A stretch of DNA of 39,980 bases, taken from assembly GCA_000992395.1 (NCBI GenBank), contig LBUD01000015.1, positions 1 through 39,980 on the forward strand, given 5' to 3'. Below the pieces are notes generated by a model. That model was not told where the DNA came from and ran no database searches. It saw only the letters and a list, made by a program, of their open reading frames with translations. Below are positions 2,084-36,036 of this stretch, one piece after another; positions within the stretch are counted from its first letter, which is position 1; every line of letters starts with the position of its first letter. The translations under genes were made by a program, and so were the position numbers. This DNA comes from Parcubacteria group bacterium GW2011_GWA2_38_13 (lineage in GTDB: Bacteria; Patescibacteriota; Patescibacteriia; Buchananbacterales; GWA2-38-13).

Positions 2084-3358
2084 TTATAAAGTGTGTTCTA
2101 TAATCTTTAAAAATTTCTTAATAATCGCGTCATAAGTATAATTTTCCATAACTCTTTTTCTCGCATCATCGCCCATTTGTTTTTGTAAATTCTCATCTGA
2201 CAAAATTTTGACTATCGCGTCGGCAAGAGCTTTTGAATTTTTTATAGGAACAACAAGACCGGTCTGGCCGTCAATATTAATCTCAGGGCTTGCTCCCGCG
2301 TCAGTCGTTATGACCGGCAAGCCGCACGACATTCCCTCAATAGTCACCTGACCAAATGCCTCCATCCAAATCGAAGGAACCACAAAGACATCCGCGGCAT
2401 TAATATATTCCGGGAGTTCGGAGAATGGCTTCCTGCCAAGTATTTGCACGCTACCGCCTACTCCAAGATTTTCAATCAATGCTTTCATTTTTTCGCTCTC
2501 GCCACCGCCGCCGATGATTGCCAACGACGCGTCAGAAATTCGCGCACGTACCTCAGGCATCGCTTCTAATAAATATCCTATCCCCTTTTCTTCAAAATTT
2601 ATTCTCCCTATAAATAAAATGATTTTCTTTCCCCGTAGCCCAAGTTTTTTTCTTAAATCATTTTTATTCCCAAGGGGTTTGAATATATTCTCTTCAATAG
2701 AGATACCAAGATCTATTGACTTTGATTCATCAAGGCCAAGCTCTTTTCCTTCCCGAATCGCCGCCTTGCTGAGAAAAACTATGGCATCGGCATTTTTATA
2801 AATAGCTTTTGCGTACTTCATCTGCCTTTTTTTCCCGAGCAAAAGCTTAAGCTTAAAATTAAGAATGCCGCCCATCCCGATTTTATAAAAAAATTTGTAC
2901 CATGGCTTTTCGCCAAAAATATCTTTCGGGGTCCTCTGAAAATGCCAGTGCCACGCCGTTATTTGCCGGAATATAAACGGCACACCAAGCCTGTGTTTTA
3001 TTTTTGCAACTGCATAACCGGTTTCACGCGCTTGCCAAACATATACAATTTTACATCCCTGTCTTACAGCTTCCAAAACCATTTTTTGCGTTCGGACACT
3101 ATAAATAAAAAAAATTATTCTGTTAAGGGGCCACGCCCAAATACTCGCCATCATAGGAGGCCAATATCTTTTTATTTTTACCCCATTAACATCCACGCTT
3201 CCCTTTTTAAAAAAACTTAAAAATGGCGCAACTACTGTTACCTCATGCCCGAGCGTTACCAAGCGCCTCATTTTTTCTATAAAATAATGATACGTGCCGA
3301 GATGTTCGCCAATTTCTTTTTCTGTTCCGAATTTATACGCTACAACGCATATTTTCAT
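2084..3358 (-). CDS. Glycosyltransferase family 4
   Basis: FIGRINFEEKG, DVFVVPSIWMEAFGQVTIEGMSCGLPV (Ex7E); likely start MKICVV at 3358 (ORF open to 3373). Confidence 0.92.
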   Translation of the reverse strand: MKICVVAYKFGTEKEIGEHLGTYHYFIEKMRRLVTLGHEVTVVAPFLSFFKKGSVDVNGVKIKRYWPPMMASIWAWPLNRIIFFIYSVRTQKMVLEAVRQGCKIVYVWQARETGYAVAKIKHRLGVPFIFRQITAWHWHFQRTPKDIFGEKPWYKFFYKIGMGGILNFKLKLLLGKKRQMKYAKAIYKNADAIVFLSKAAIREGKELGLDESKSIDLGISIEENIFKPLGNKNDLRKKLGLRGKKIILFIGRINFEEKGIGYLLEAMPEVRARISDASLAIIGGGGESEKMKALIENLGVGGSVQILGRKPFSELPEYINAADVFVVPSIWMEAFGQVTIEGMSCGLPVITTDAGASPEINIDGQTGLVVPIKNSKALADAIVKILSDENLQKQMGDDARKRVMENYTYDAIIKKFLKIIEHTL

Positions 3359-3414
3359 ACAATCATATTTCAAATAAATATTCTTCTTCCTAAATCCATT
3401 TCCCTATCACTCTG

Positions 3415-3423
3415 ATTATACCA
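3415..3423 (-). promoter_or_regulatory. Extended -10 promoter element (TGgTATAAT) abutting palindrome copy 1
   Basis: Minus strand reads TGGTATAAT upstream of the GT4 gene; the -35 position falls inside the palindrome and is non-consensus. Confidence 0.55.
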
Positions 3424-3460
3424 CTTGCAATTTTACTGCGATAGCATAAAAATAACAAGT
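3423..3460. repeat. 38-bp imperfect palindrome, copy 1
   Basis: ACTTGCAATTTTACTGCGATAGCATAAAAATAACAAGT; last base overlaps the stop codon of the PaaX-like gene. Confidence 0.92.
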
Positions 3461-4011
3461 CATACGCTTTTATCAATTTTTATATCTTTAACTTTCAACA
3501 TCTGTACTCCATCTTCTATACCAAAATCTTTAATGATGCTCCGAATATCTTTAATAATATTATTTGAAGTAATCCATATACTCTTTTGAAGCTGATCAAA
3601 ACCCAGATCTTTAAGCTTATTACGAAATATCTCCCGTTTATATTTAAATTTTTCAGGAATATCATAAAAAATCATCAATTGCTCGTTATGGGGCAATTTT
3701 TCTTTCTTTTGAATTTTTAACTGCAAGGAAAAAATCTTTTTCTGCGCTTTGGGGGTCAAAATAAAACCATACGATTTTTCGAATTTCTTTTTTTGTAGAT
3801 ACCCCCTCCTTTTTAAATTTGCCAAAGCACTGTGAATCTTCTGTCTTTTATTTTTATCTTCTAAAAATTCTTCCATCCACTTGCGATTTTCATACCTTTT
3901 CGGCAAACCTCTTAAAAAAGGTGGGATATAATGAAAACTAAAAACATGTTCAGTGGTATCAAAAAAATCAGAAAGAAATAATAACATTTTATCAGATAAA
4001 GAATATCCCAT
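3460..4011 (-). CDS. PaaX-like protein: winged HTH plus Cas2/VapD-like ferredoxin-fold domain
   Basis: IHSALANLKRRGYL...FILTPKA (wHTH) followed by IFYDIPEKFKYKREIFRNKLKDLGFDQLQKSIW. Confidence 0.85.
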   Translation of the reverse strand: MGYSLSDKMLLFLSDFFDTTEHVFSFHYIPPFLRGLPKRYENRKWMEEFLEDKNKRQKIHSALANLKRRGYLQKKKFEKSYGFILTPKAQKKIFSLQLKIQKKEKLPHNEQLMIFYDIPEKFKYKREIFRNKLKDLGFDQLQKSIWITSNNIIKDIRSIIKDFGIEDGVQMLKVKDIKIDKSV

Positions 4012-4049
4012 ATCTTAAAATATCTATCAAAATTATGAATAAACTTTCT

Positions 4050-4087
4050 ACTTGTCATTTTTCTGCGATAGCATAAAAATGACAAGT
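4050..4087. repeat. 38-bp imperfect palindrome, copy 2
   Basis: ACTTGTCATTTTTCTGCGATAGCATAAAAATGACAAGT, 38 bp upstream of the PaaX-like start codon. Confidence 0.95.
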
Positions 4088-4088
4088 G

Positions 4089-4112
4089 ATTATTATTATT
4101 ATTATTATTATT
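4089..4112. repeat. (ATT)8 microsatellite
   Basis: Eight perfect ATT units starting one base after palindrome copy 2. Confidence 0.9.
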
Positions 4113-4141
4113 TTCGTTTTCCGGTTGTGTATATTCCCTAT

Positions 4142-6970
4142 TCATTCCCTCACTTCATATAGCTGATACAGAGCGTCATCGCCTTCGCCATAATAATCAT
4201 TTTCAACTGCTTCTTCAAGTAGTTGTACGCCAAGTCTTTCCAAATCTTCCTTATGCCTTTCCATAAATCGTTGAGAGTTGGGACGAAGGTGCATATCTAA
4301 AAGTACTGGCTTTTTCTGCTCCTTGGCTTTTTCTTTCAGTTTTTGCGTAAATGCCTCCATCATATTCCAGCCGATTCCCTGCCCTTGCGCTTCCGGTGCA
4401 ACCGCGATGTCTTCCAAATACACACAGGGTTCGCCATCAGAGGTTTCATCTTCAACGCCAACAATATACCCAAGCATTTCTAAAGTCTTCTTCCCCTTTC
4501 TCGTCCCCTGCAAGGTAATAGAATATTCCAAACCTTTTTCATCGTTAATATCTTGGATCAAACCCTGTCCCGCGATGAGGTCTTCATCTTCTTGCTGGTA
4601 AATTGTCCTTTCTAATCTTAGGATTTCCGAAAAATCTTTTTCCGTGAGATCCTTGGTGACCAGGCCTTTGAATTGCACCTTGGGAAGGTCTGTCTTTTCC
4701 TTCTTTTCCATATTCTGGCGTTTTGGATTTTCATCTTTTTCATCCCAAATAATTTTTACGCTTTTCTCCTCTGCCTCAAGAAAATAGCCGTCGGGACGGT
4801 TGCTGTTGCCAATTTTTTTGTAGGTGGACTCGTCATCGCGCAATATATTCTGATTGCTCGCGGTGGGAAGGTCATTATTTCTTTTGCCCAAGACAACTTT
4901 TTTTGCGCCTATGGTTCTGGCGTACTCTTGTAAAAACTCAAAAAGCTCTTGAGTAAGCTGTTCCGGATAGTTTGAACTGTACAGCGTATTGGATTCAATA
5001 TTATCTACCACCAAAACTGGAGTGCCCCCCTCATCTTCACCCAGCCAGCACCAAGCGGCCGTCACTGGCTCTTGCTTGGTTTCGTCCCAGATATTAACAA
5101 TTTGAATGCCCAGGTCAGTAGTGTAATCAGCAATGGTTGATTCTGCGCCATCCGCATGGTATCCGCTTTCAATGGAAATACAGCAGGGGGAATAATTGGC
5201 CTGATACAAATCAATATCTGGATTTCTTGCCCAGACAAATATGCTCATGGGCTGGGATTCAAGCTTTTCTTTTTCCGCGTCCTGCCGTTCAGAAAAAAGG
5301 TTAGCCAGAGTGCTCCGGTCAACATCATAGTGAGTGAGCTGTTCCTGGAAACCTTGCTGAATTTCCTGGATCAGCCCGGCTGACCTCTCCTCGCCTAATG
5401 CCGGCAGAATAGTGGCATAAAGAGTATTTCTAAAATCTTCCATTCTCCGCTCTAAAACACTAAATTTTGTCCTAAGCTCATCTTTTGCTTTGGCTATTTT
5501 TTCTTTTTGCTCTCTGATTTCTTTGCCGGATGGCGCCTTTTGGGCAGTGAGCTCCTGAAATTTGGCTTCCGCCTCCATGGCTCTTTCGTGCGCCAGGTGC
5601 ACGTCATTTTTTAGTAATTGGAATGAATTAATGGTATTGATGAGTTTATTCCATACTGATACGGTGGCTGTCTTTTCCTTGGATTTTTCAGTGCTTTCCA
5701 TTCCCTTAAGAATTCCTTGGGATTTTTTCTCATTGCCTTCTCTTTTCGCCTTTTCGTATTCCCCTCTCATCTTGGCAATCTTTTCATCAATGCCACCGCT
5801 TTCTGCCACGGGTATCTGGTGTTCCGAGAGTTCTTTATGATATGGCTTTACCGTTTCTTTGATGAGGTGAGCGTAGCTGTCAATGGTTTCTTTAATTCTA
5901 TTGATCGGCGTGGCAATGGTTTCCGAAAATGCCACGGTGTTTTTGCGAGATGCCAAAGAAAAATATCGTACTTCATCATACGCGAGCCATTGTTCAACAG
6001 CAATGCCGCTGGCTTCAATTGCTTTATATATTTCTGTGTTTCTTTTAAAGTCTTTGAGCTTTTCCTGCATGGCCTGGCGGAACTCCAGGGACTCGGGATC
6101 TATTTCTGGATGTGCTGCCATGATTTCATTTTTGGCAGTGTACAGAAAGGTAATGTTTTCTCTTGAACTAGCATCCAATGATTCAAATTTTACCAAGAGC
6201 TTTGTGCCAAAACGGGGATTTCTCTCTACCGCGTCAAAAAGAAAAGGATTTTCATCAACGGTGGTAAAAAGTTTCTCGGGCGCTCCTCTATAGTTAAATA
6301 ATGACATTACTACTTCAAGGGAACGCGTTGCTTGGCGGTAAAATTGCGCCGATTTTTCCTGAAGCTTTACGAGCAGTTCTTGAAGATCCGGAAATGCATC
6401 AATAATTTCCCGCGGGGTTATCTGAACGAAAAAATTTTCCCTAACTTCAAGGGCAGCATCTACCCAGCCGTGAGACAAATGCTCAATCATACCTTCCTTG
6501 GCAGCGGAATGCAACTCTGGCGATTGTAGAATTTCCTTGGAAACCTTCAATCGATTTTTGATGTTAAGGGCAGAATTTAGCCGGCTGTCAGACAAACACT
6601 TAATCATTCCTTCCTTGGCAGCGGATTGCACGACTTCCTCGGGAACCTTAAAGTCATCTTTGATTTCAAGGGCATCATCTATCTGGTCGCAAGACAAACA
6701 CTTAATCATTCCTTCCTTGGCAGCGGATTGCACGACTTCCTCGGGAAGCTGAGATCCAACTTTGATTAGAAGGGCATAAAATATCCGGCCGTGAGACAGA
6801 TGATCAATCATGCTTTGCTTAGCTTTTTCTTGATCTTCCGTGAGTTTAATTTCTGGTTTTTCTTTATCTGGTTCAGCTTCTTCAACTTTTTCACATTTTT
6901 TATGATCCCCATCCTCCAAGGGCAAGCCACAAGCCGGTTCAAATTGTTGACCTTCGGATTTTTCGGTCAT
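4142..6970 (-). CDS. 942-aa protein: N-terminal helical repeats, coiled coil, uncharacterised YSPCC domain, C-terminal GNAT acetyltransferase
   Basis: Long ORF; YLEDIAVAPEAQGQGIGWNMM is GNAT motif A; PEEVVQSAAKEGMIKCLS occurs twice. Confidence 0.8.
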   Translation of the reverse strand: MTEKSEGQQFEPACGLPLEDGDHKKCEKVEEAEPDKEKPEIKLTEDQEKAKQSMIDHLSHGRIFYALLIKVGSQLPEEVVQSAAKEGMIKCLSCDQIDDALEIKDDFKVPEEVVQSAAKEGMIKCLSDSRLNSALNIKNRLKVSKEILQSPELHSAAKEGMIEHLSHGWVDAALEVRENFFVQITPREIIDAFPDLQELLVKLQEKSAQFYRQATRSLEVVMSLFNYRGAPEKLFTTVDENPFLFDAVERNPRFGTKLLVKFESLDASSRENITFLYTAKNEIMAAHPEIDPESLEFRQAMQEKLKDFKRNTEIYKAIEASGIAVEQWLAYDEVRYFSLASRKNTVAFSETIATPINRIKETIDSYAHLIKETVKPYHKELSEHQIPVAESGGIDEKIAKMRGEYEKAKREGNEKKSQGILKGMESTEKSKEKTATVSVWNKLINTINSFQLLKNDVHLAHERAMEAEAKFQELTAQKAPSGKEIREQKEKIAKAKDELRTKFSVLERRMEDFRNTLYATILPALGEERSAGLIQEIQQGFQEQLTHYDVDRSTLANLFSERQDAEKEKLESQPMSIFVWARNPDIDLYQANYSPCCISIESGYHADGAESTIADYTTDLGIQIVNIWDETKQEPVTAAWCWLGEDEGGTPVLVVDNIESNTLYSSNYPEQLTQELFEFLQEYARTIGAKKVVLGKRNNDLPTASNQNILRDDESTYKKIGNSNRPDGYFLEAEEKSVKIIWDEKDENPKRQNMEKKEKTDLPKVQFKGLVTKDLTEKDFSEILRLERTIYQQEDEDLIAGQGLIQDINDEKGLEYSITLQGTRKGKKTLEMLGYIVGVEDETSDGEPCVYLEDIAVAPEAQGQGIGWNMMEAFTQKLKEKAKEQKKPVLLDMHLRPNSQRFMERHKEDLERLGVQLLEEAVENDYYGEGDDALYQLYEVRE
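6590..6747. repeat. 56-bp perfect intragenic direct repeat with 102-bp period
   Basis: 6590-6645 is identical to 6692-6747; degenerate copies near 6472-6513 and 6793-6812. Confidence 0.9.
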
Positions 6971-7007
6971 AGTATTAAAATTATAAATTACAAATCAGGA
7001 ATAATAT

Positions 7008-7063
7008 ATATTTTCTACTTGTCATTTTACTGCGATAGCATAAAAATGACAAGTAGAAAATAT
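7008..7063. repeat. 38-bp palindrome, copy 3 (core 7017-7054), extended to a 21-bp perfect inverted repeat
   Basis: ATATTTTCTACTTGTCATTTT - 14 nt - AAAATGACAAGTAGAAAATAT. Confidence 0.95.
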
Positions 7064-7097
7064 GTGGGTATAAATTTTAATATTCTTTTATAAATTT

Positions 7098-8168
7098 TCA
7101 TATAACAAATTGTTTTACTATGAATTGTGCCAATGATCCGAGATTGTGTTTTTTCAACACCTCCTCGCGCAAAACTCTTCGAATCTTTTCTTTATTTTGG
7201 CGTGTTAGATTTTTTATCTGGAATAATTTTTTTGCAAGTTCTTTTGGCTGATCTTTTTCTATTAATAAATTATCGCTTACTATTCCCTTGAATGCCTTAT
7301 TGGAAGTAATGACCGTGCATCCGCATGCCATTGCCTCTAAAACGGCCTTATCTACGCTTCCTGTATTGCTTAAATTAATAAAAACATCGGCTTCTTGATA
7401 AAATCTCACAACCTCCTTATTCGGTATCGGTCCTACAAATTCTATAATTTTCTCCAGATCCATGGCCCTTACCATCTGCTTTAAATTATCAAAATAGCTC
7501 TGATGCTCAGGCAATCCGGGTTCGCCTACAATTTTTACAATTAAATTTTTTTCACCGCCGTCGTCCAGCGAATCAATTGCTTTAATCAGGCTCTCTAAAT
7601 CTTTGGTGGGGGAAATTCTTCCTACAGTTAGAATATGAAACAATGCGTCATCAGGATAATCTTTCCATATAGGATGAAACAGCTCGGTGTCAATGCCATG
7701 CCCCGTTGCTAATACTTTTTCGGAATGTATAGGAAAACTTTCCGGCGATGCGGTCAAAATCACGTTAGCCATCTTTACCAACAATTTTAGTTTCCACGTG
7801 ATTGTGCCATGCGTATACCAAGAAACTATTTTTTTCCTATGGATTTTCGCATATGGCCAAATATTTAACGTATACTCCGGATTCATATGGCAAAATATTC
7901 CCTGCACTTTCGGAACAATTTTTATGGCATATTTTTGAAATTCTATGAAACGTCCAAACCGGCTGACTCCGACTTCTTTGCCAAGCGAATAAATCTCAAC
8001 GTTGTCCGGCAATCCCGAAACATCACCTTTTTCAATGCAAATACAATACAACTTCGCATTCGCATCAAGATTTTTCAATTCTTGCGCAATTTTATCCACC
8101 CAGCCATAAGCGAAACCGGCCAAAGCGTCGGCGTGATCAATTTTTCTTGTTATCATGAGTATATTCAT
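7098..8168 (-). CDS. Glycosyltransferase family 4
   Basis: GHGIDTELF, TVGRISPTKD, DVFINLSNTGSVDKAVLEAMACG. Confidence 0.92.
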   Translation of the reverse strand: MNILMITRKIDHADALAGFAYGWVDKIAQELKNLDANAKLYCICIEKGDVSGLPDNVEIYSLGKEVGVSRFGRFIEFQKYAIKIVPKVQGIFCHMNPEYTLNIWPYAKIHRKKIVSWYTHGTITWKLKLLVKMANVILTASPESFPIHSEKVLATGHGIDTELFHPIWKDYPDDALFHILTVGRISPTKDLESLIKAIDSLDDGGEKNLIVKIVGEPGLPEHQSYFDNLKQMVRAMDLEKIIEFVGPIPNKEVVRFYQEADVFINLSNTGSVDKAVLEAMACGCTVITSNKAFKGIVSDNLLIEKDQPKELAKKLFQIKNLTRQNKEKIRRVLREEVLKKHNLGSLAQFIVKQFVI

Positions 8169-8180
8169 ATCTAAAATATA

Positions 8181-10034
8181 TTAATGTAGATTAAAACATC
8201 TTTGTACGGCAATACAATATTTTGAATCGTGAAATTCCCTGATTTGGTATTTTAAAATAATTTCCTTAAGCCATTGGGGCAATTCATCCGAATATTTTAC
8301 TTCCATAATGGATGCATTTTCCAATAAAATATTGCCGTCAGATACCTTGTGAATTCCTTGAAACGAGCCTGCCGTGAATTCTTTATCAAAAATAACCCGG
8401 ATATCTTTATTGAGCCCGCCGACCATAGCGCACCTTTTATAATTTACAAAAAGTATCGGCTTCATCTGATGCTGTGATGCAATTTGCAAAAATTCCTGTA
8501 TAATTTCCCGGCTTTCGGCCGGCATATTTGAAGCTTTATCCAGCGACATATTTTGCATGATCCGTGAAAAATCCGAATAGCTGATTTTTACTCTAAATTT
8601 CTTTACATACTTTCCTTTTCTTTTTTTTATTTCAGGATATACGATAAAATCTTCAGTATCGGGCTCAACGTAAATCCTTAAACGGTATTTTGTCAATTCT
8701 TTTGTTATGTCCTTCCTTTGGTGATAGCATTGAAAATCTTGTGTATCAAAATAAACATTAATAATTTTATAAAAATTTCCGCCGGTAATATTTGAATATT
8801 CATCAAATTCCATAAATTTTCTCATTTCCCCAATTATCGTGTTGAGCTGATCCCAAGGAATAAGAAATTTTATTTCCTGGCGCAAAAAACTCGCGCTTTC
8901 TATAACATGAACGATATTGTTCCAAAATGCAATGATTTTTTCCGTTACAACCTTCCCATCAAAATTTTCAAAAACATATTTTTTTGCGTTTTGCCCCATT
9001 GCAAGCGCAACGTCAAAATTTTTCAGTATATATAATATCTTTTCGCCCATCAGACTATAATCTCCTATTCCAACTAAAAACCCGTTATACCCGTCTTTGA
9101 TAATTTCCATTGCACCGGTTGTTGCTGTTGATATAACCGGTTTCCCGCACGCCGACGCTTCAATCAAAACCTTACCAAAGCTTTCACTAAGCGATGACAG
9201 GACAAAAATATCACAAGCATAATAGTATGCAATAATGTCTTTCTGTTCTTTTTGCTCCAAAAAATGCACGTCAAGCTTTTTTCCCGCGCATAAATCTTTC
9301 AGTTTTGCGCCTTCGCTTCCAGACCCTATGACAACAAGGGTTGCGTTATTGATTTTTTTTGCCACTTCCTCGTATGCATGTATCAGGGTTTCAATATCTT
9401 TAACTTTTTCCAGCCGCCCCACAAACAGGATAATTTTTTTATTTTCATAATCTTTTCGAATAGCCTCCACTTTGTTTATATCAGTATTTCCAAACTTTGA
9501 TATATCAACGGGTGTCGGGATAACTTTTATTTTATTTTCAGGCACTCCATTCAAAATTAATTTTTTCTGTATACCAATACTCATTGCACGAAACGCGTCA
9601 GCTTCTTTCATATTATGTTTTGCCAGTAAAACCAGATACCTATTTTTCCAATCCTCTCTTAAAAAACTTCCATTATCCAAAAAATCTCCGTGGAAATGAA
9701 TTAAAAGTTTTGTTGTATGCATTTTTTTCAGTCTTATTCCAACCGTTGCCGTTATAAATGGGTCTTGCGTGATTATAAGATCATAATGTTTTTTTTCAAA
9801 CAATCGCCTTGCAATTTTCATCGCATCCCTGATATATAAAAATTTATATGATGAATTTGTAGGAAATGCCGATACATTTTCAGAAATTACGTAAGGCGAA
9901 TATCCGCTTTTGCTAAAAACTATAATATCAATACTGTCTACACGCTTGCCATATTCTTTATGACGCTCGCAAACATCCCCAAGCTGCCCTTGCCCCAGCA
10001 ATCCTTTATCCAAACTGATGATTAAAATATTCAT
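8181..10034 (-). CDS. GT4 glycosyltransferase fused to a C-terminal VTC (CYTH-like, polyphosphate polymerase) domain
   Basis: GT4: FVGRLEKVKD, ESFGKVLIEASACGKP. VTC: RQEIKF, YFDT, KYRLRIY, EIKKR, YKR, RVIFD, MEVKY, SKYC. Confidence 0.85.
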   Translation of the reverse strand: MNILIISLDKGLLGQGQLGDVCERHKEYGKRVDSIDIIVFSKSGYSPYVISENVSAFPTNSSYKFLYIRDAMKIARRLFEKKHYDLIITQDPFITATVGIRLKKMHTTKLLIHFHGDFLDNGSFLREDWKNRYLVLLAKHNMKEADAFRAMSIGIQKKLILNGVPENKIKVIPTPVDISKFGNTDINKVEAIRKDYENKKIILFVGRLEKVKDIETLIHAYEEVAKKINNATLVVIGSGSEGAKLKDLCAGKKLDVHFLEQKEQKDIIAYYYACDIFVLSSLSESFGKVLIEASACGKPVISTATTGAMEIIKDGYNGFLVGIGDYSLMGEKILYILKNFDVALAMGQNAKKYVFENFDGKVVTEKIIAFWNNIVHVIESASFLRQEIKFLIPWDQLNTIIGEMRKFMEFDEYSNITGGNFYKIINVYFDTQDFQCYHQRKDITKELTKYRLRIYVEPDTEDFIVYPEIKKRKGKYVKKFRVKISYSDFSRIMQNMSLDKASNMPAESREIIQEFLQIASQHQMKPILFVNYKRCAMVGGLNKDIRVIFDKEFTAGSFQGIHKVSDGNILLENASIMEVKYSDELPQWLKEIILKYQIREFHDSKYCIAVQRCFNLH

Positions 10035-13757: not shown

Positions 13758-13876
13758 AATTTCTAATTACTAATTTTTAATTTCTAAACAATGCCTGATG
13801 TCTAATTTCAAAATTTTTATTTATTAGTTTATTAGGAATTTCTTAGGTTAATTAGAAATTAGGTCAATTAGAAATT
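13758..13876. repeat. Imperfect hairpin element with AATTTCTAATT/AATTAGAAATT termini
   Basis: Same ends as 33015-33379; overlaps the last codons and stop of the epimerase gene. Confidence 0.75.
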
Positions 13877-14826: not shown

Positions 14827-14868
14827 ATTTAATTTCTGTTTTTTTAGGTTAATTAGGTAATTAGATAA

Positions 14869-15654
14869 TTAGGTTAATTGTTTCTTCTGCCCTAGCAACT
14901 CCTCATTTATCTTCTGCACATCTTCAAGCAAAGGAACTTCCACACCCAGATCCTGCGCAAGATCAACAAGCGAAGCCAGATCTTTCGGCAAACATTTGCC
15001 GCCAAATCCCCTGAAACCCCCGTGCCATACATCAAAATTTCCCGGAGCCACTCGCCTATCGTGTTCAAACGCCTCGCGCACGATATTGTAATCAATACCA
15101 AGCGACTGGCATATATCATAAATCTGGTTTGCAAAAATAACTTTTGTAGCATAATACGAGTTCACCATATACTTTGTCATTTCAGCGGCTTTCGCCAACA
15201 TAATTTTTGAATACTTTGCTTGCGGCAATATTGCCAAAATTTTTTCTGCAACATCTTTGCTTAACTTTGTATACCCGACGATTTGTTTATCAGGGTTCAA
15301 AAAATCCTGCGGCGCGGTTGAATTGTCTAAAAATTCCGGATTAAAAAGCAGGCGCAATTTTGGATATTTTTCTTGGAACATATCCGTAGTGCCGGGTACA
15401 ACCGTTGATTTGATAATCACGACCTTGCCGTCCATATTGCTCAATTTTTCCAAAACCTCATCAACAATTGATGCATCAAAACCTGAATTTTCGTTATACG
15501 GCGTTGGAACACATATAAAAATATATTCTTGGCTTGCCACCTCATCCCACGGATCCATTGTTAAAAATTTGTCATAAACCTTAGCATTTTTAAAAAAATT
15601 TTTCACTGCCTTGCCCACCACTCCTCCCCCAATGATTCCAACGGATTTATGCAT
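14869..15654 (-). CDS. UDP-glucose/GDP-mannose 6-dehydrogenase family, short form
   Basis: GGGVVG, ICVPTP, KSTVVPGT, NPEFL, GFGGKCLPKD; 261 aa, no C-terminal UDP-binding domain. Confidence 0.85.
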   Translation of the reverse strand: MHKSVGIIGGGVVGKAVKNFFKNAKVYDKFLTMDPWDEVASQEYIFICVPTPYNENSGFDASIVDEVLEKLSNMDGKVVIIKSTVVPGTTDMFQEKYPKLRLLFNPEFLDNSTAPQDFLNPDKQIVGYTKLSKDVAEKILAILPQAKYSKIMLAKAAEMTKYMVNSYYATKVIFANQIYDICQSLGIDYNIVREAFEHDRRVAPGNFDVWHGGFRGFGGKCLPKDLASLVDLAQDLGVEVPLLEDVQKINEELLGQKKQLT

Positions 15655-32933: not shown

Positions 32934-33014
32934 AATATATAAAGATTCAAAAATTGAATACAGCTATGCAAGGAGCAAGTCTGCTTTGGGACGAGACTTT
33001 TAGCAAGCCCTGTA

Positions 33015-33379
33015 AATTTCTAATTATTCTAATTCCTAATTAATCTAAATAATTCCCAATGTATAAATCCAAATGTCAAATCAAATCCGAACTATTTAAA
33101 TCCTAGATACGAAATCCTAACTCATTAAATCCTAAATCTGAATATCGAAATTCTAAACAAGTTCGAAATCACAATTTTCCAATTTTCCAAACAATACTTT
33201 ACATTTTTAGTTTGAAACATTGTGATTTGTGATTTATGATTTGTTTAGGATCTAGGATTTAGAATTTCGGATTTATTTGATATGAGAATTTCGGATTTTA
33301 AAAGATTTGAGCTTTGGTTTTTGGGTTTATTGTTTTGGGATTTTATTAGAAATTAGAGCAATTGGGTCAATTAGAAATT
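33015..33379. repeat. 365-bp nested imperfect palindrome with about 7-nt periodicity
   Basis: A/C-rich left arm, G/T-rich right arm; termini AATTTCTAATT / AATTAGAAATT. Confidence 0.85.
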
Positions 33380-34945: not shown

Positions 34946-34997
34946 AACAACCCATAACCCTGACTTACCAAGTAAGATCGGGGTTTTTTCTATATAT
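34946..34997 (+). terminator. Terminator hairpin, direct repeat copy A
   Basis: AACCCTGACTTACCAAGTAAGATCGGGGTTTTTT. Confidence 0.8.
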
Positions 34998-35971: not shown

Positions 35972-36021
35972 AACAACCCAAAACCCCGACTTATCAATTA
36001 AGATCGGGGTTTTCTATATAT
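35972..36021 (+). terminator. Terminator hairpin, direct repeat copy B
   Basis: AAAACCCCGACTTATCAATTAAGATCGGGGTTTT. Confidence 0.8.
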
Positions 36022-36036
36022 AATTTTTAACGAAGG

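Follow-up and report, generated by a model that had tools for sequence, protein, structure and literature searches.

We asked what three nearly identical 38-bp palindromes are doing between the genes of a glycan operon in a member of the Patescibacteria (candidate phyla radiation, CPR). The palindromes lie in a stretch of 39,980 nucleotides, referred to here as the window, from contig LBUD01000015.1 of Parcubacteria group bacterium GW2011_GWA2_38_13 (assembly GCA_000992395.1). In our numbering the window is contig C15 of genome G000, which comprises 63 contigs and 1,036,782 bases and is 82.7% complete; its relatives and best database matches are groundwater Patescibacteria. One of the genes bounded by the palindromes encodes a 183-amino-acid (aa) protein, here called mini-PaaX, in which a winged helix-turn-helix (wHTH) is followed by a Cas2-like domain. 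With a probability of roughly 0.6, judged from sequence comparison, the palindromes are the cognate promoter-operators of mini-PaaX, which would act as an autoregulated repressor. The original prediction for this locus had left a choice between an operator array and a gene-cassette system whose hairpins serve for recombination or excision, and it is the operator array that fits best.

Three palindromes, each upstream of a gene

The features on which the argument turns are as follows.

3423 to 3460, palindrome copy 1: ACTTGCAATTTTACTGCGATAGCATAAAAATAACAAGT, degenerate, with 3 mismatches; upstream of the glycosyltransferase (GT) gene 2084-3358
4050 to 4087, palindrome copy 2: 0 mismatches; 38 nt before the mini-PaaX ATG; proposed autoregulatory promoter-operator
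7017 to 7054, palindrome copy 3: 0 mismatches; 46 nt before the ATG of the 942-aa gene
3460 to 4011, minus strand: mini-PaaX, wHTH plus Cas2-like, 183 aa, from its PF20803 match, structure model and fold search
4142 to 6970, minus strand: 942-aa accessory gene; repeats at the N-terminus, conservation in the central region, GNAT acetyltransferase domain at the C-terminus

The 38-mer has exactly three matches in the window, all on the plus strand (0.00 expected from 100 dinucleotide shuffles), so that the three same-orientation copies described in the original prediction are confirmed. A pattern search of all 1,036,782 bases of G000 found no fourth copy (backwards-read control, 0). Every gene between 56 and 13709 is on the minus strand, and each copy stands upstream of the gene to its left; the gap for copy 1 is 64 nt (GT ATG at 3358), close to the spacing of 38-65 bp given earlier. 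Along the gene strand, GT gene 7098-8168 is followed by copy 3, the 942-aa gene, copy 2, the 183-aa gene, copy 1 and GT gene 2084-3358.

Copy 2 is a near-perfect 38-bp dyad (half-length 19, 2 mismatches), and the dyad of copy 3 reaches from 7008 to 7063, with 26-nt arms that are 92% complementary. Two of the changes in copy 1 disrupt its dyad. The core CTGCGATAGCAT is the same in all three copies, as had been claimed; its description as asymmetric does not hold, in that it continues the near-perfect 38-bp dyad and leaves no loop. The centre of the dyad, CGATAG, is a one-base variant of the CGATCG that is found across the protein family (see below). Copy 1 does touch the stop codon of the open reading frame (ORF) 3460..4011(-), with which it has base 3460 in common. 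Of note, there is an (ATT)n microsatellite at 4088-4120, between the stop codon of the 942-aa gene and copy 2, and contigs of metagenome run X1 have gaps there.

The 942-aa protein carries its GNAT domain (PF00583) across residues 831-904, and its N-terminal part is encoded by 102-nt (34-aa) tandem repeats at 6424-6827. The protein family is widespread over many CPR lineages at 45-60% identity, yet a search of the 6 other genomes of the taxonomic family did not find the gene. With a G+C content of 0.41-0.46 the gene does exceed the genome (0.38), as had been pointed out, but the contrast is modest, since the flanking GT frame 2084-3373 is at 0.40-0.44. The repeat region varies among samples: a contig of run X3 skips 102 nt (6589-6692) and a contig of run X1 has 117 additional letters at 6937/6938.

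Mini-PaaX combines a winged helix with a Cas2-like domain

The sole Pfam match of mini-PaaX is PF20803 (PaaX_M, 'PaaX central Cas2-like domain'), which covers residues 113-176 with E=1.5e-14 and 54.3 bits (cut-off 24); the PaaX N-terminal domain gave no Pfam match at E<=0.01, and PaaX_C (PF08223), the effector (aryl-CoA) domain, is missing. An AlphaFold model built from 118 aligned relatives (mean per-residue confidence, pLDDT, 89.1) predicts a winged helix at residues 37-85 (helices 37-51 and 53-68, wing 72-85), then a linker helix, then a beta-alpha-beta-beta-alpha-beta domain at 110-175; the protein would thus end after the Cas2-like domain. The top Foldseek match of the model is E. coli PaaX (8a39; E=8e-5, 126 columns), and many Cas2 structures come next. 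Together, the Pfam match, the model and the fold search agree with the earlier description of the gene between copies 1 and 2 as one for a wHTH plus Cas2-like (PaaX_M) protein.

A sequence profile of the family favours Cas2 (3exc, 9.4e-4; 6jhz, 1.6e-3) over PaaX (8a39, 0.67). Residues D117, R126 and S144, which correspond to the Asp/Arg/Ser signature of Cas2, are invariant in the 118 sequences, and the FDIPE of the family stands where E. coli PaaX has SEGLD. Scores against the equivalog models are nevertheless far below their cut-offs for both TIGR02277 (PaaX_trns_reg; 28.9 bits, cut-off 264.55) and TIGR01573 (Cas2; 17.1, cut-off 24.5). It is because of these scores and the missing PaaX_C that we use the name mini-PaaX: the protein is neither PaaX nor Cas2 proper. 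Databases automatically name such clusters 'Cas2 family protein' or hypothetical. PADLOC returned only weak Cas2 matches (best, 7e-06), and PADLOC and PHROGs together gave weak Cas2 and acetyltransferase matches. Within G000, at its 82.7% completeness, no Cas1 scored above the cut-off, and one sub-threshold stretch contains stop codons. A homodimer prediction for mini-PaaX, run without controls, scored 0.02.

Gene and palindrome are linked across the family

When 1.84 billion representative proteins were searched with a profile, 6337 clusters (50% identity) passed E<=1e-3 and 4837 passed E<=1e-10; their members are mostly 170-200 aa in length. Of 506 candidate stretches in GTDB species genomes, 421 were confirmed, nearly all of them in Patescibacteria, and profile searches of five such genomes (0.6-0.9 Mb) gave 2, 8, 14, 9 and 2 matching places. 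Within the taxonomic family of G000, homologues occur in 4 of 7 genomes, at 2, 9, 4 and 3 places. (Note that a single-sequence search within the order placed the protein family in f1 only, which the profile and pattern searches reveal to be a limit of sensitivity.)

To count palindromes we used 74 loci that were fetched with both flanks from GTDB species genomes, and we called a palindrome strong when its half-length minus twice its mismatches was at least 12. At least one strong palindrome flanks the family gene in 40 loci: 27 have one upstream, 25 have one downstream and 12 have one at both ends; the ends of other genes in the same loci, which served as control, had none (0/126 and 0/126). 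The palindromes are 30-50 bp long and their arms are specific to each locus, with centres that are mostly CGATCG (38), CGGCCG (19) or AAGCTT (6), with a few others. Between the end of the upstream copy and the ATG there are 2-60 nt, and the distance from the stop codon to the start of the downstream copy is usually no more than about 10 nt. Outside the window, a CGATCG-type palindrome adjoins the gene at 12 of 17 places in the taxonomic family, and locus L011 has the centre CTATAG. Three-copy modules that resemble the one in the window, with unrelated cargo, are present at L014/L034, L040, L045 and L095.

The paralogue in G000 itself (contig C42, between ligA and glyS) is 39% identical to the window gene and has its own, different palindrome (TTGGTATAT..ACGATCGT..) on both sides. 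In Daviesbacteria orthologues with 80-85% protein identity the palindrome is conserved and the DNA just upstream is unalignable. At L048 the first codons of the gene recur after the downstream copy. In G000 as in G002, the gene after ligA is a member of the family (L005 1498-2037 and L013 1501-2076). The two proteins are 38.5% identical as against 67% for ligA, and their palindromes have only the centre in common; either gene and palindrome have co-diverged very fast, or the site has seen a replacement. Note that arm identity rises with protein identity, from 0.33 to 0.65, a trend that descent explains as well as co-evolution does and that we do not count as evidence.

In genome G001, a contig end is no more than about 700 nt away from 8 of 9 family genes (C96, C82, C53, C110, C131, C116, C10 and C93). 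Draft assemblies seem to break at duplicated palindromes, and the family may therefore be under-counted.

The upstream copies carry promoter-like elements

A scan for sigma-70-like consensus elements found promoter-like sequences on the minus strand, which is that of the genes, at all three copies in the window: TTGTCA-17-TAAAAT at copy 3 (7052->7024, 10/12), TTGTCA-17-AAAAAT at copy 2 (4085->4057) and TTGTTA-17-TAAAAT at copy 1 (3458->3430). Directly after copy 1 there is an extended -10, TGGTATAAT (3423->3415). Alone, such consensus matches would be no proof of promoters; they gain weight from the comparison with the family. Among 47 upstream copies, 39 have a sense -10 of at least 5/6, 13 have TATAAT itself and 18 have an extended -10, as compared with 21, 0 and 7 on the antisense side of the same copies, and with 397, 36 and 90 in 2000 random 42-mers. 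In 11 of the 47 the dyad centre lies 19-21 nt from the ATG within a TTGACA-N17/18-TAnnAT arrangement whose spacer contains the conserved centre, which by its layout would yield a leaderless transcript. It is because the window copies are promoter-like on the gene strand and the upstream palindromes of the family carry -10 elements that we favour the operator reading. Solo sites of the family's palindrome types, which stand 20-50 bp before other genes in G033, likewise speak for it.

Some of the same comparisons bear on the nucleic acid that would be recognised. The centre hexamers are self-complementary, and mismatches within the dyads are as often G.T (52) as A.C (49), with no strand bias. 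These findings argue for duplex DNA that is read by a two-fold symmetric protein rather than for an RNA hairpin.

The module was inserted between two glycosyltransferase genes

The flanks of the module are listed here in the order of their coordinates.

2084 to 3358, minus strand: GT4 glycosyltransferase, downstream flank of the insertion; 61% identical to L184 1504-2778 (G002)
3351 to 3358, minus strand: ATGAAAAT, downstream copy, which contains the GT ATG (3358); the same 8-mer is at 7094-7101
3359 to 3422, minus strand: distal end of the inserted block and leader of the GT gene, bearing TGGTATAAT, as read from the sequence
7094 to 7101, minus strand: ATGAAAAT, upstream copy, which contains the stop codon of the upstream GT (7100-7098); 8-mer match
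7098 to 8168, minus strand: GT4 glycosyltransferase, upstream flank of the insertion; 65% identical to L184 443-1507 (G002)

In G002, which belongs to the same taxonomic family and a different genus, the orthologues of the two flanking GTs are adjacent and overlap by ATGA, with no palindrome, regulator or GNAT gene between them. The ends of the proteins are colinear: AQFIVKQFVI* at the C-terminus of the upstream GT aligns with SQLIVRQFIL* in G002, and the N-terminus of the downstream GT, MKICVVAYKFG, matches MNICVVAYKFG, which sets its true ATG at 3358 (within the ORF 2084-3373). Because the GTs of G002 overlap without a palindrome between them, the 3.7-kb block of the window is an insertion. 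The earlier statement that the block interrupts a tightly packed GT operon thus holds, and G002 supplies the empty arrangement.

Between the two copies of the 8-bp direct repeat ATGAAAAT lie 3735 bp (3359-7093). The repeat only suggests a target duplication or microhomology, given that 4 of its 8 bases were necessarily duplicated for both GTs to survive and that the 8-mer is common (5 times on the plus strand of 3.9 kb). The junctions fall 43 nt outside copy 3 and 64 nt outside copy 1. Together with the palindrome-free empty site, this position of the junctions argues against the palindromes as recombination sites of the insertion.

Other places were of less use for such a comparison. The orthologues in relatives of G031 are too distant, G006 and G003-G005 have 34-50% identity and no usable synteny, and for the G002 loci L007 and L010 the corresponding place in G000 is occupied by other genes. 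In the neighbourhood of glyS in 6 relatives, ligA is not adjacent. A GC-rich 36-bp palindrome (L104 2858-2893, G002:C30) with the centre GCGGCCGC and TCCTCC/GGAGGA ends stands 14 nt upstream of glyS; having no family gene next to it, this palindrome may be an anti-Shine-Dalgarno/Shine-Dalgarno hairpin or a solo site.

Elsewhere in the window, the glycan operon includes an unusual pairing of a GT4 glycosyltransferase with a VTC (polyphosphate-polymerase-type) domain, fused in one 617-aa protein (8181-10034, minus strand). A 51-nt direct repeat with 88% identity (34946-34996 and 35972-36022) includes a GC-rich hairpin and then a T run, and resembles a duplicated terminator. Repeats of about 33 nt that are rich in TTAG/AATTAG occur at four places, including 13839-13871, 14840-14872 and 33333-33374, and have an inverted partner at 33014-33060.

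A model for the module, and points that weigh against it

We propose that mini-PaaX, the 183-aa protein whose gene lies between copies 1 and 2, recognises all three 38-bp palindromes as its cognate sites. If it behaves like PaaX, two subunits would pair through the Cas2-like domain; their wHTH heads could then contact the outer arms (TTGTCA ... TGACAA), which are spaced by about two turns of the helix, with the body of the protein over the centre that is conserved. A putative leftward promoter overlaps or adjoins every site, and binding would silence the regulator gene, the gene for the GNAT-family protein and the downstream GTs together until some signal relieved repression. The 3.7-kb unit as a whole, from copy 3 through the 942-aa gene, copy 2 and the regulator gene to copy 1, was inserted as one block, and copy 1 with its extended -10 may have become a new regulated promoter for the GT genes that were cut off from their operon.

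Several observations weigh against this proposal. The missing PaaX_C leaves no inducer that could be named. A relaxed, spaced search of G000 adds only 4-mismatch matches that lack the centre, and hence no further sites. Because the genomes are kin, the palindrome counts in the 74 loci overstate independence. Comparison of copies within loci, over 846 positions, gives 39 double changes that preserve the dyad and 146 single-arm changes, and the symmetric double changes are several-fold above what independent mutation would produce. Downstream copies have a good sense -10 in only 22 of 53 cases, and they are equally common where the next gene is convergent (13/19) and where it is co-directional (39/59). 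From these last two results it follows that the downstream copy is a property of the regulator's own gene; the bracket is not simply an operator before every gene. The downstream copy may have remained from a tandem duplication, or it may act as a roadblock or, through looping, as a second operator. Finally, ordinary operator evolution does not account for the copies in genome G035, to which we now turn.

Alternative explanations

In G035 a 38-40-bp palindrome is found at six places, with 0-2 mismatches over a 24-nt core. Three of the copies are solo, and two, both perfect palindromes, stand in frame within genes: a solo copy in the interdomain linker of enolase (L191 1490-1535, C64) and a copy in murF beside a regulator gene (L040 1747-1784, C63). 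Both in-frame copies translate as CNRFLPIGRNLLQ, and the corresponding loop of the G000 orthologues is 6 residues shorter. Multiple copies of one type are also present in G033 (5 copies, 3 of them solo and each 20-50 bp upstream of a gene) and in G034 (3 good copies, 1 good solo). Such copies would be expected if the palindromes were small self-copying DNA elements that the wHTH-Cas2-like protein recognises, maintains or moves, in analogy with REPIN-RAYT systems, with promoter activity as a secondary use; this explanation is compatible with operator function, and it draws further strength from the excess of symmetric co-changes, from the invariance of the Cas2 Asp/Arg/Ser signature in a family whose FDIPE is SEGLD in E. 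coli PaaX, and from a number of family genes that ranges from 0 to 14 per genome. We nonetheless hold it to be rather unlikely. Copy numbers are tiny (3 in G000 and no more than 6 elsewhere), only 2 of 92 distinct strong palindromes are inside genes and both are in G035, the paralogues are old (39% identity in G000) and several orthologues keep their synteny, and the junctions of the window insertion fall outside the palindromes. Moreover, we know of no nuclease or transposase chemistry for PaaX_M. Less probable still is the more general proposition that the wHTH-Cas2-like proteins of Patescibacteria are more than repressors and copy or move 30-50-bp palindromes, which would bracket their own and cargo genes and occasionally land, in frame, in housekeeping genes.

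The layout of repeat, gene, repeat, gene, repeat with a directly oriented asymmetric centre had suggested a gene-cassette system, in which the palindromes would be site-specific recombination sites that capture or excise cargo in the manner of integron attC or Xer/dif. The three-copy modules with unrelated cargo at L014/L034, L045 and L095 could be read in the same way, as could the missing 942-aa gene in the 6 other genomes of the taxonomic family and a 501-aa cargo that is bracketed by palindromes in L045 and absent in its orthologue L043. The palindromes of the L045 cargo, however, differ from the upstream palindrome of the regulator there and recur by PsbP_2-like paralogues of the cargo, next to which two of the solo sites in G033 lie; recurrence by paralogous genes fits duplicated promoter regions. 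In the window, the empty site of G002 has no palindrome and the junctions are in the 8-bp repeat outside. Among the contigs of four metagenome runs (X1, X3, X5 and X6), which show presence and not absence, none joins palindrome to palindrome or shows a deletion joint, and contigs that bridge copies 1, 2 and 3 have the same structure as the window. (One joint in X1, 3568->7068, has only 21 letters on one side and was dismissed as spurious.) The sole tyrosine recombinase match (PF00589) in G000 is on contig C52, with no integrase on C15, and Cas1, as described above, did not reach its cut-off. Recombination or excision at the hairpins, the other half of the original prediction, is therefore very improbable.

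We give the least credence to the possibility that the palindromes work as RNA hairpins, be it as terminators, processing sites or mRNA sites for a Cas2-like RNase. Their stems are long and perfect, the downstream copy comes right after the stop codon and would be transcribed, and some Cas2/VapD relatives are described as RNases in the titles of their PDB entries. On the other hand, the upstream copies sit at promoters and would be only partly transcribed, the centres are self-complementary hexamers and not free loops, and G.T mismatches are not in excess. We reject a role as terminator, since none of the 9 terminator-like sites in our scan coincides with a copy and since, on either strand, a T run precedes the palindrome and an A run follows it, which is the wrong polarity for an intrinsic terminator. 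The promoter-operator reading thus remains the one that we prefer, with the stop-codon copies and the in-frame copies of enolase and murF as features for which it offers no ready explanation.

Comparison with known systems

To our knowledge, almost nothing is known about transcription control in Patescibacteria. Literature searches, as far as their best-ranked matches reach and with supplements outside their scope, found nothing that links PaaX to Patescibacteria or Cas2; within that reach, a minimal PaaX-type regulator that keeps the Cas2 signature, is bracketed by its own long palindromes and is abundant in CPR has not been described. If the promoter-operator reading is true, one family would make up a large share of CPR regulators, with 6337 clusters and up to 14 places in a 0.9-Mb genome. 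The cis-element of each member could then be read from sequence, and regulons and promoters, including apparently leaderless ones, would become predictable in uncultured organisms. It would also correct the automatic annotation of these proteins as Cas2 family or hypothetical.

Integron cassettes and Xer/dif modules have the same repeat-gene-repeat-gene-repeat layout; the window differs from them in that there is no recombinase nearby and no repeat copy at the empty site. Rickettsia palindromic elements are short palindromic repeats that stand in frame within housekeeping genes. The eno and murF copies of G035 are like them, with the difference that they are confined to one genome (2/92), which is not G000.

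Comparison with PaaX, the phenylacetyl-CoA-responsive repressor of E. coli and Pseudomonas (8a39, 3l09), reveals a common design, a wHTH followed by a Cas2-like central domain. According to a review, the 39-bp site of E. coli PaaX is TGATTC-N27-GAATCA, and binding there sterically blocks RNA polymerase and so represses the Px promoter of the regulator itself (PMC9493321). In size, this long and widely spaced inverted-repeat operator is comparable with the 30-50-bp dyads of our family, a parallel at the level of sequence only. PaaX has about 316 aa as compared with 183 aa for mini-PaaX. Mini-PaaX retains the Asp motif of Cas2, which is absent from E. coli PaaX, and has no paa genes nearby; its proposed sites are palindromic over their whole length, share a conserved CGATCG-type centre and include one beyond the stop codon. 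A 276-aa relative from Omnitrophota (L088) does have PaaX_C.

With CRISPR Cas2, mini-PaaX has in common the C-terminal signature FDIPE...R...R...LQxSVW. It differs in its fusion to a wHTH, in scores below the Cas2 cut-offs and in a genome with no Cas1 above the cut-off; furthermore, the repeats here bracket genes of 0.6-3 kb rather than 30-bp spacers. REPIN-RAYT systems resemble the module in that a single gene is flanked by its own cognate palindromes, with a repeat type specific to each paralogue. RAYT is an HUH/Y1 transposase and not a wHTH-Cas2-like protein, and REPINs number tens to hundreds, as against the 2-6 copies found here, with the 3 of the window all local. If mini-PaaX proteins did turn out to move palindromes, they would represent a REPIN-RAYT-like partnership built on the Cas2 fold, and would hint at how an ancestor of Cas2 came to handle palindromic repeats.

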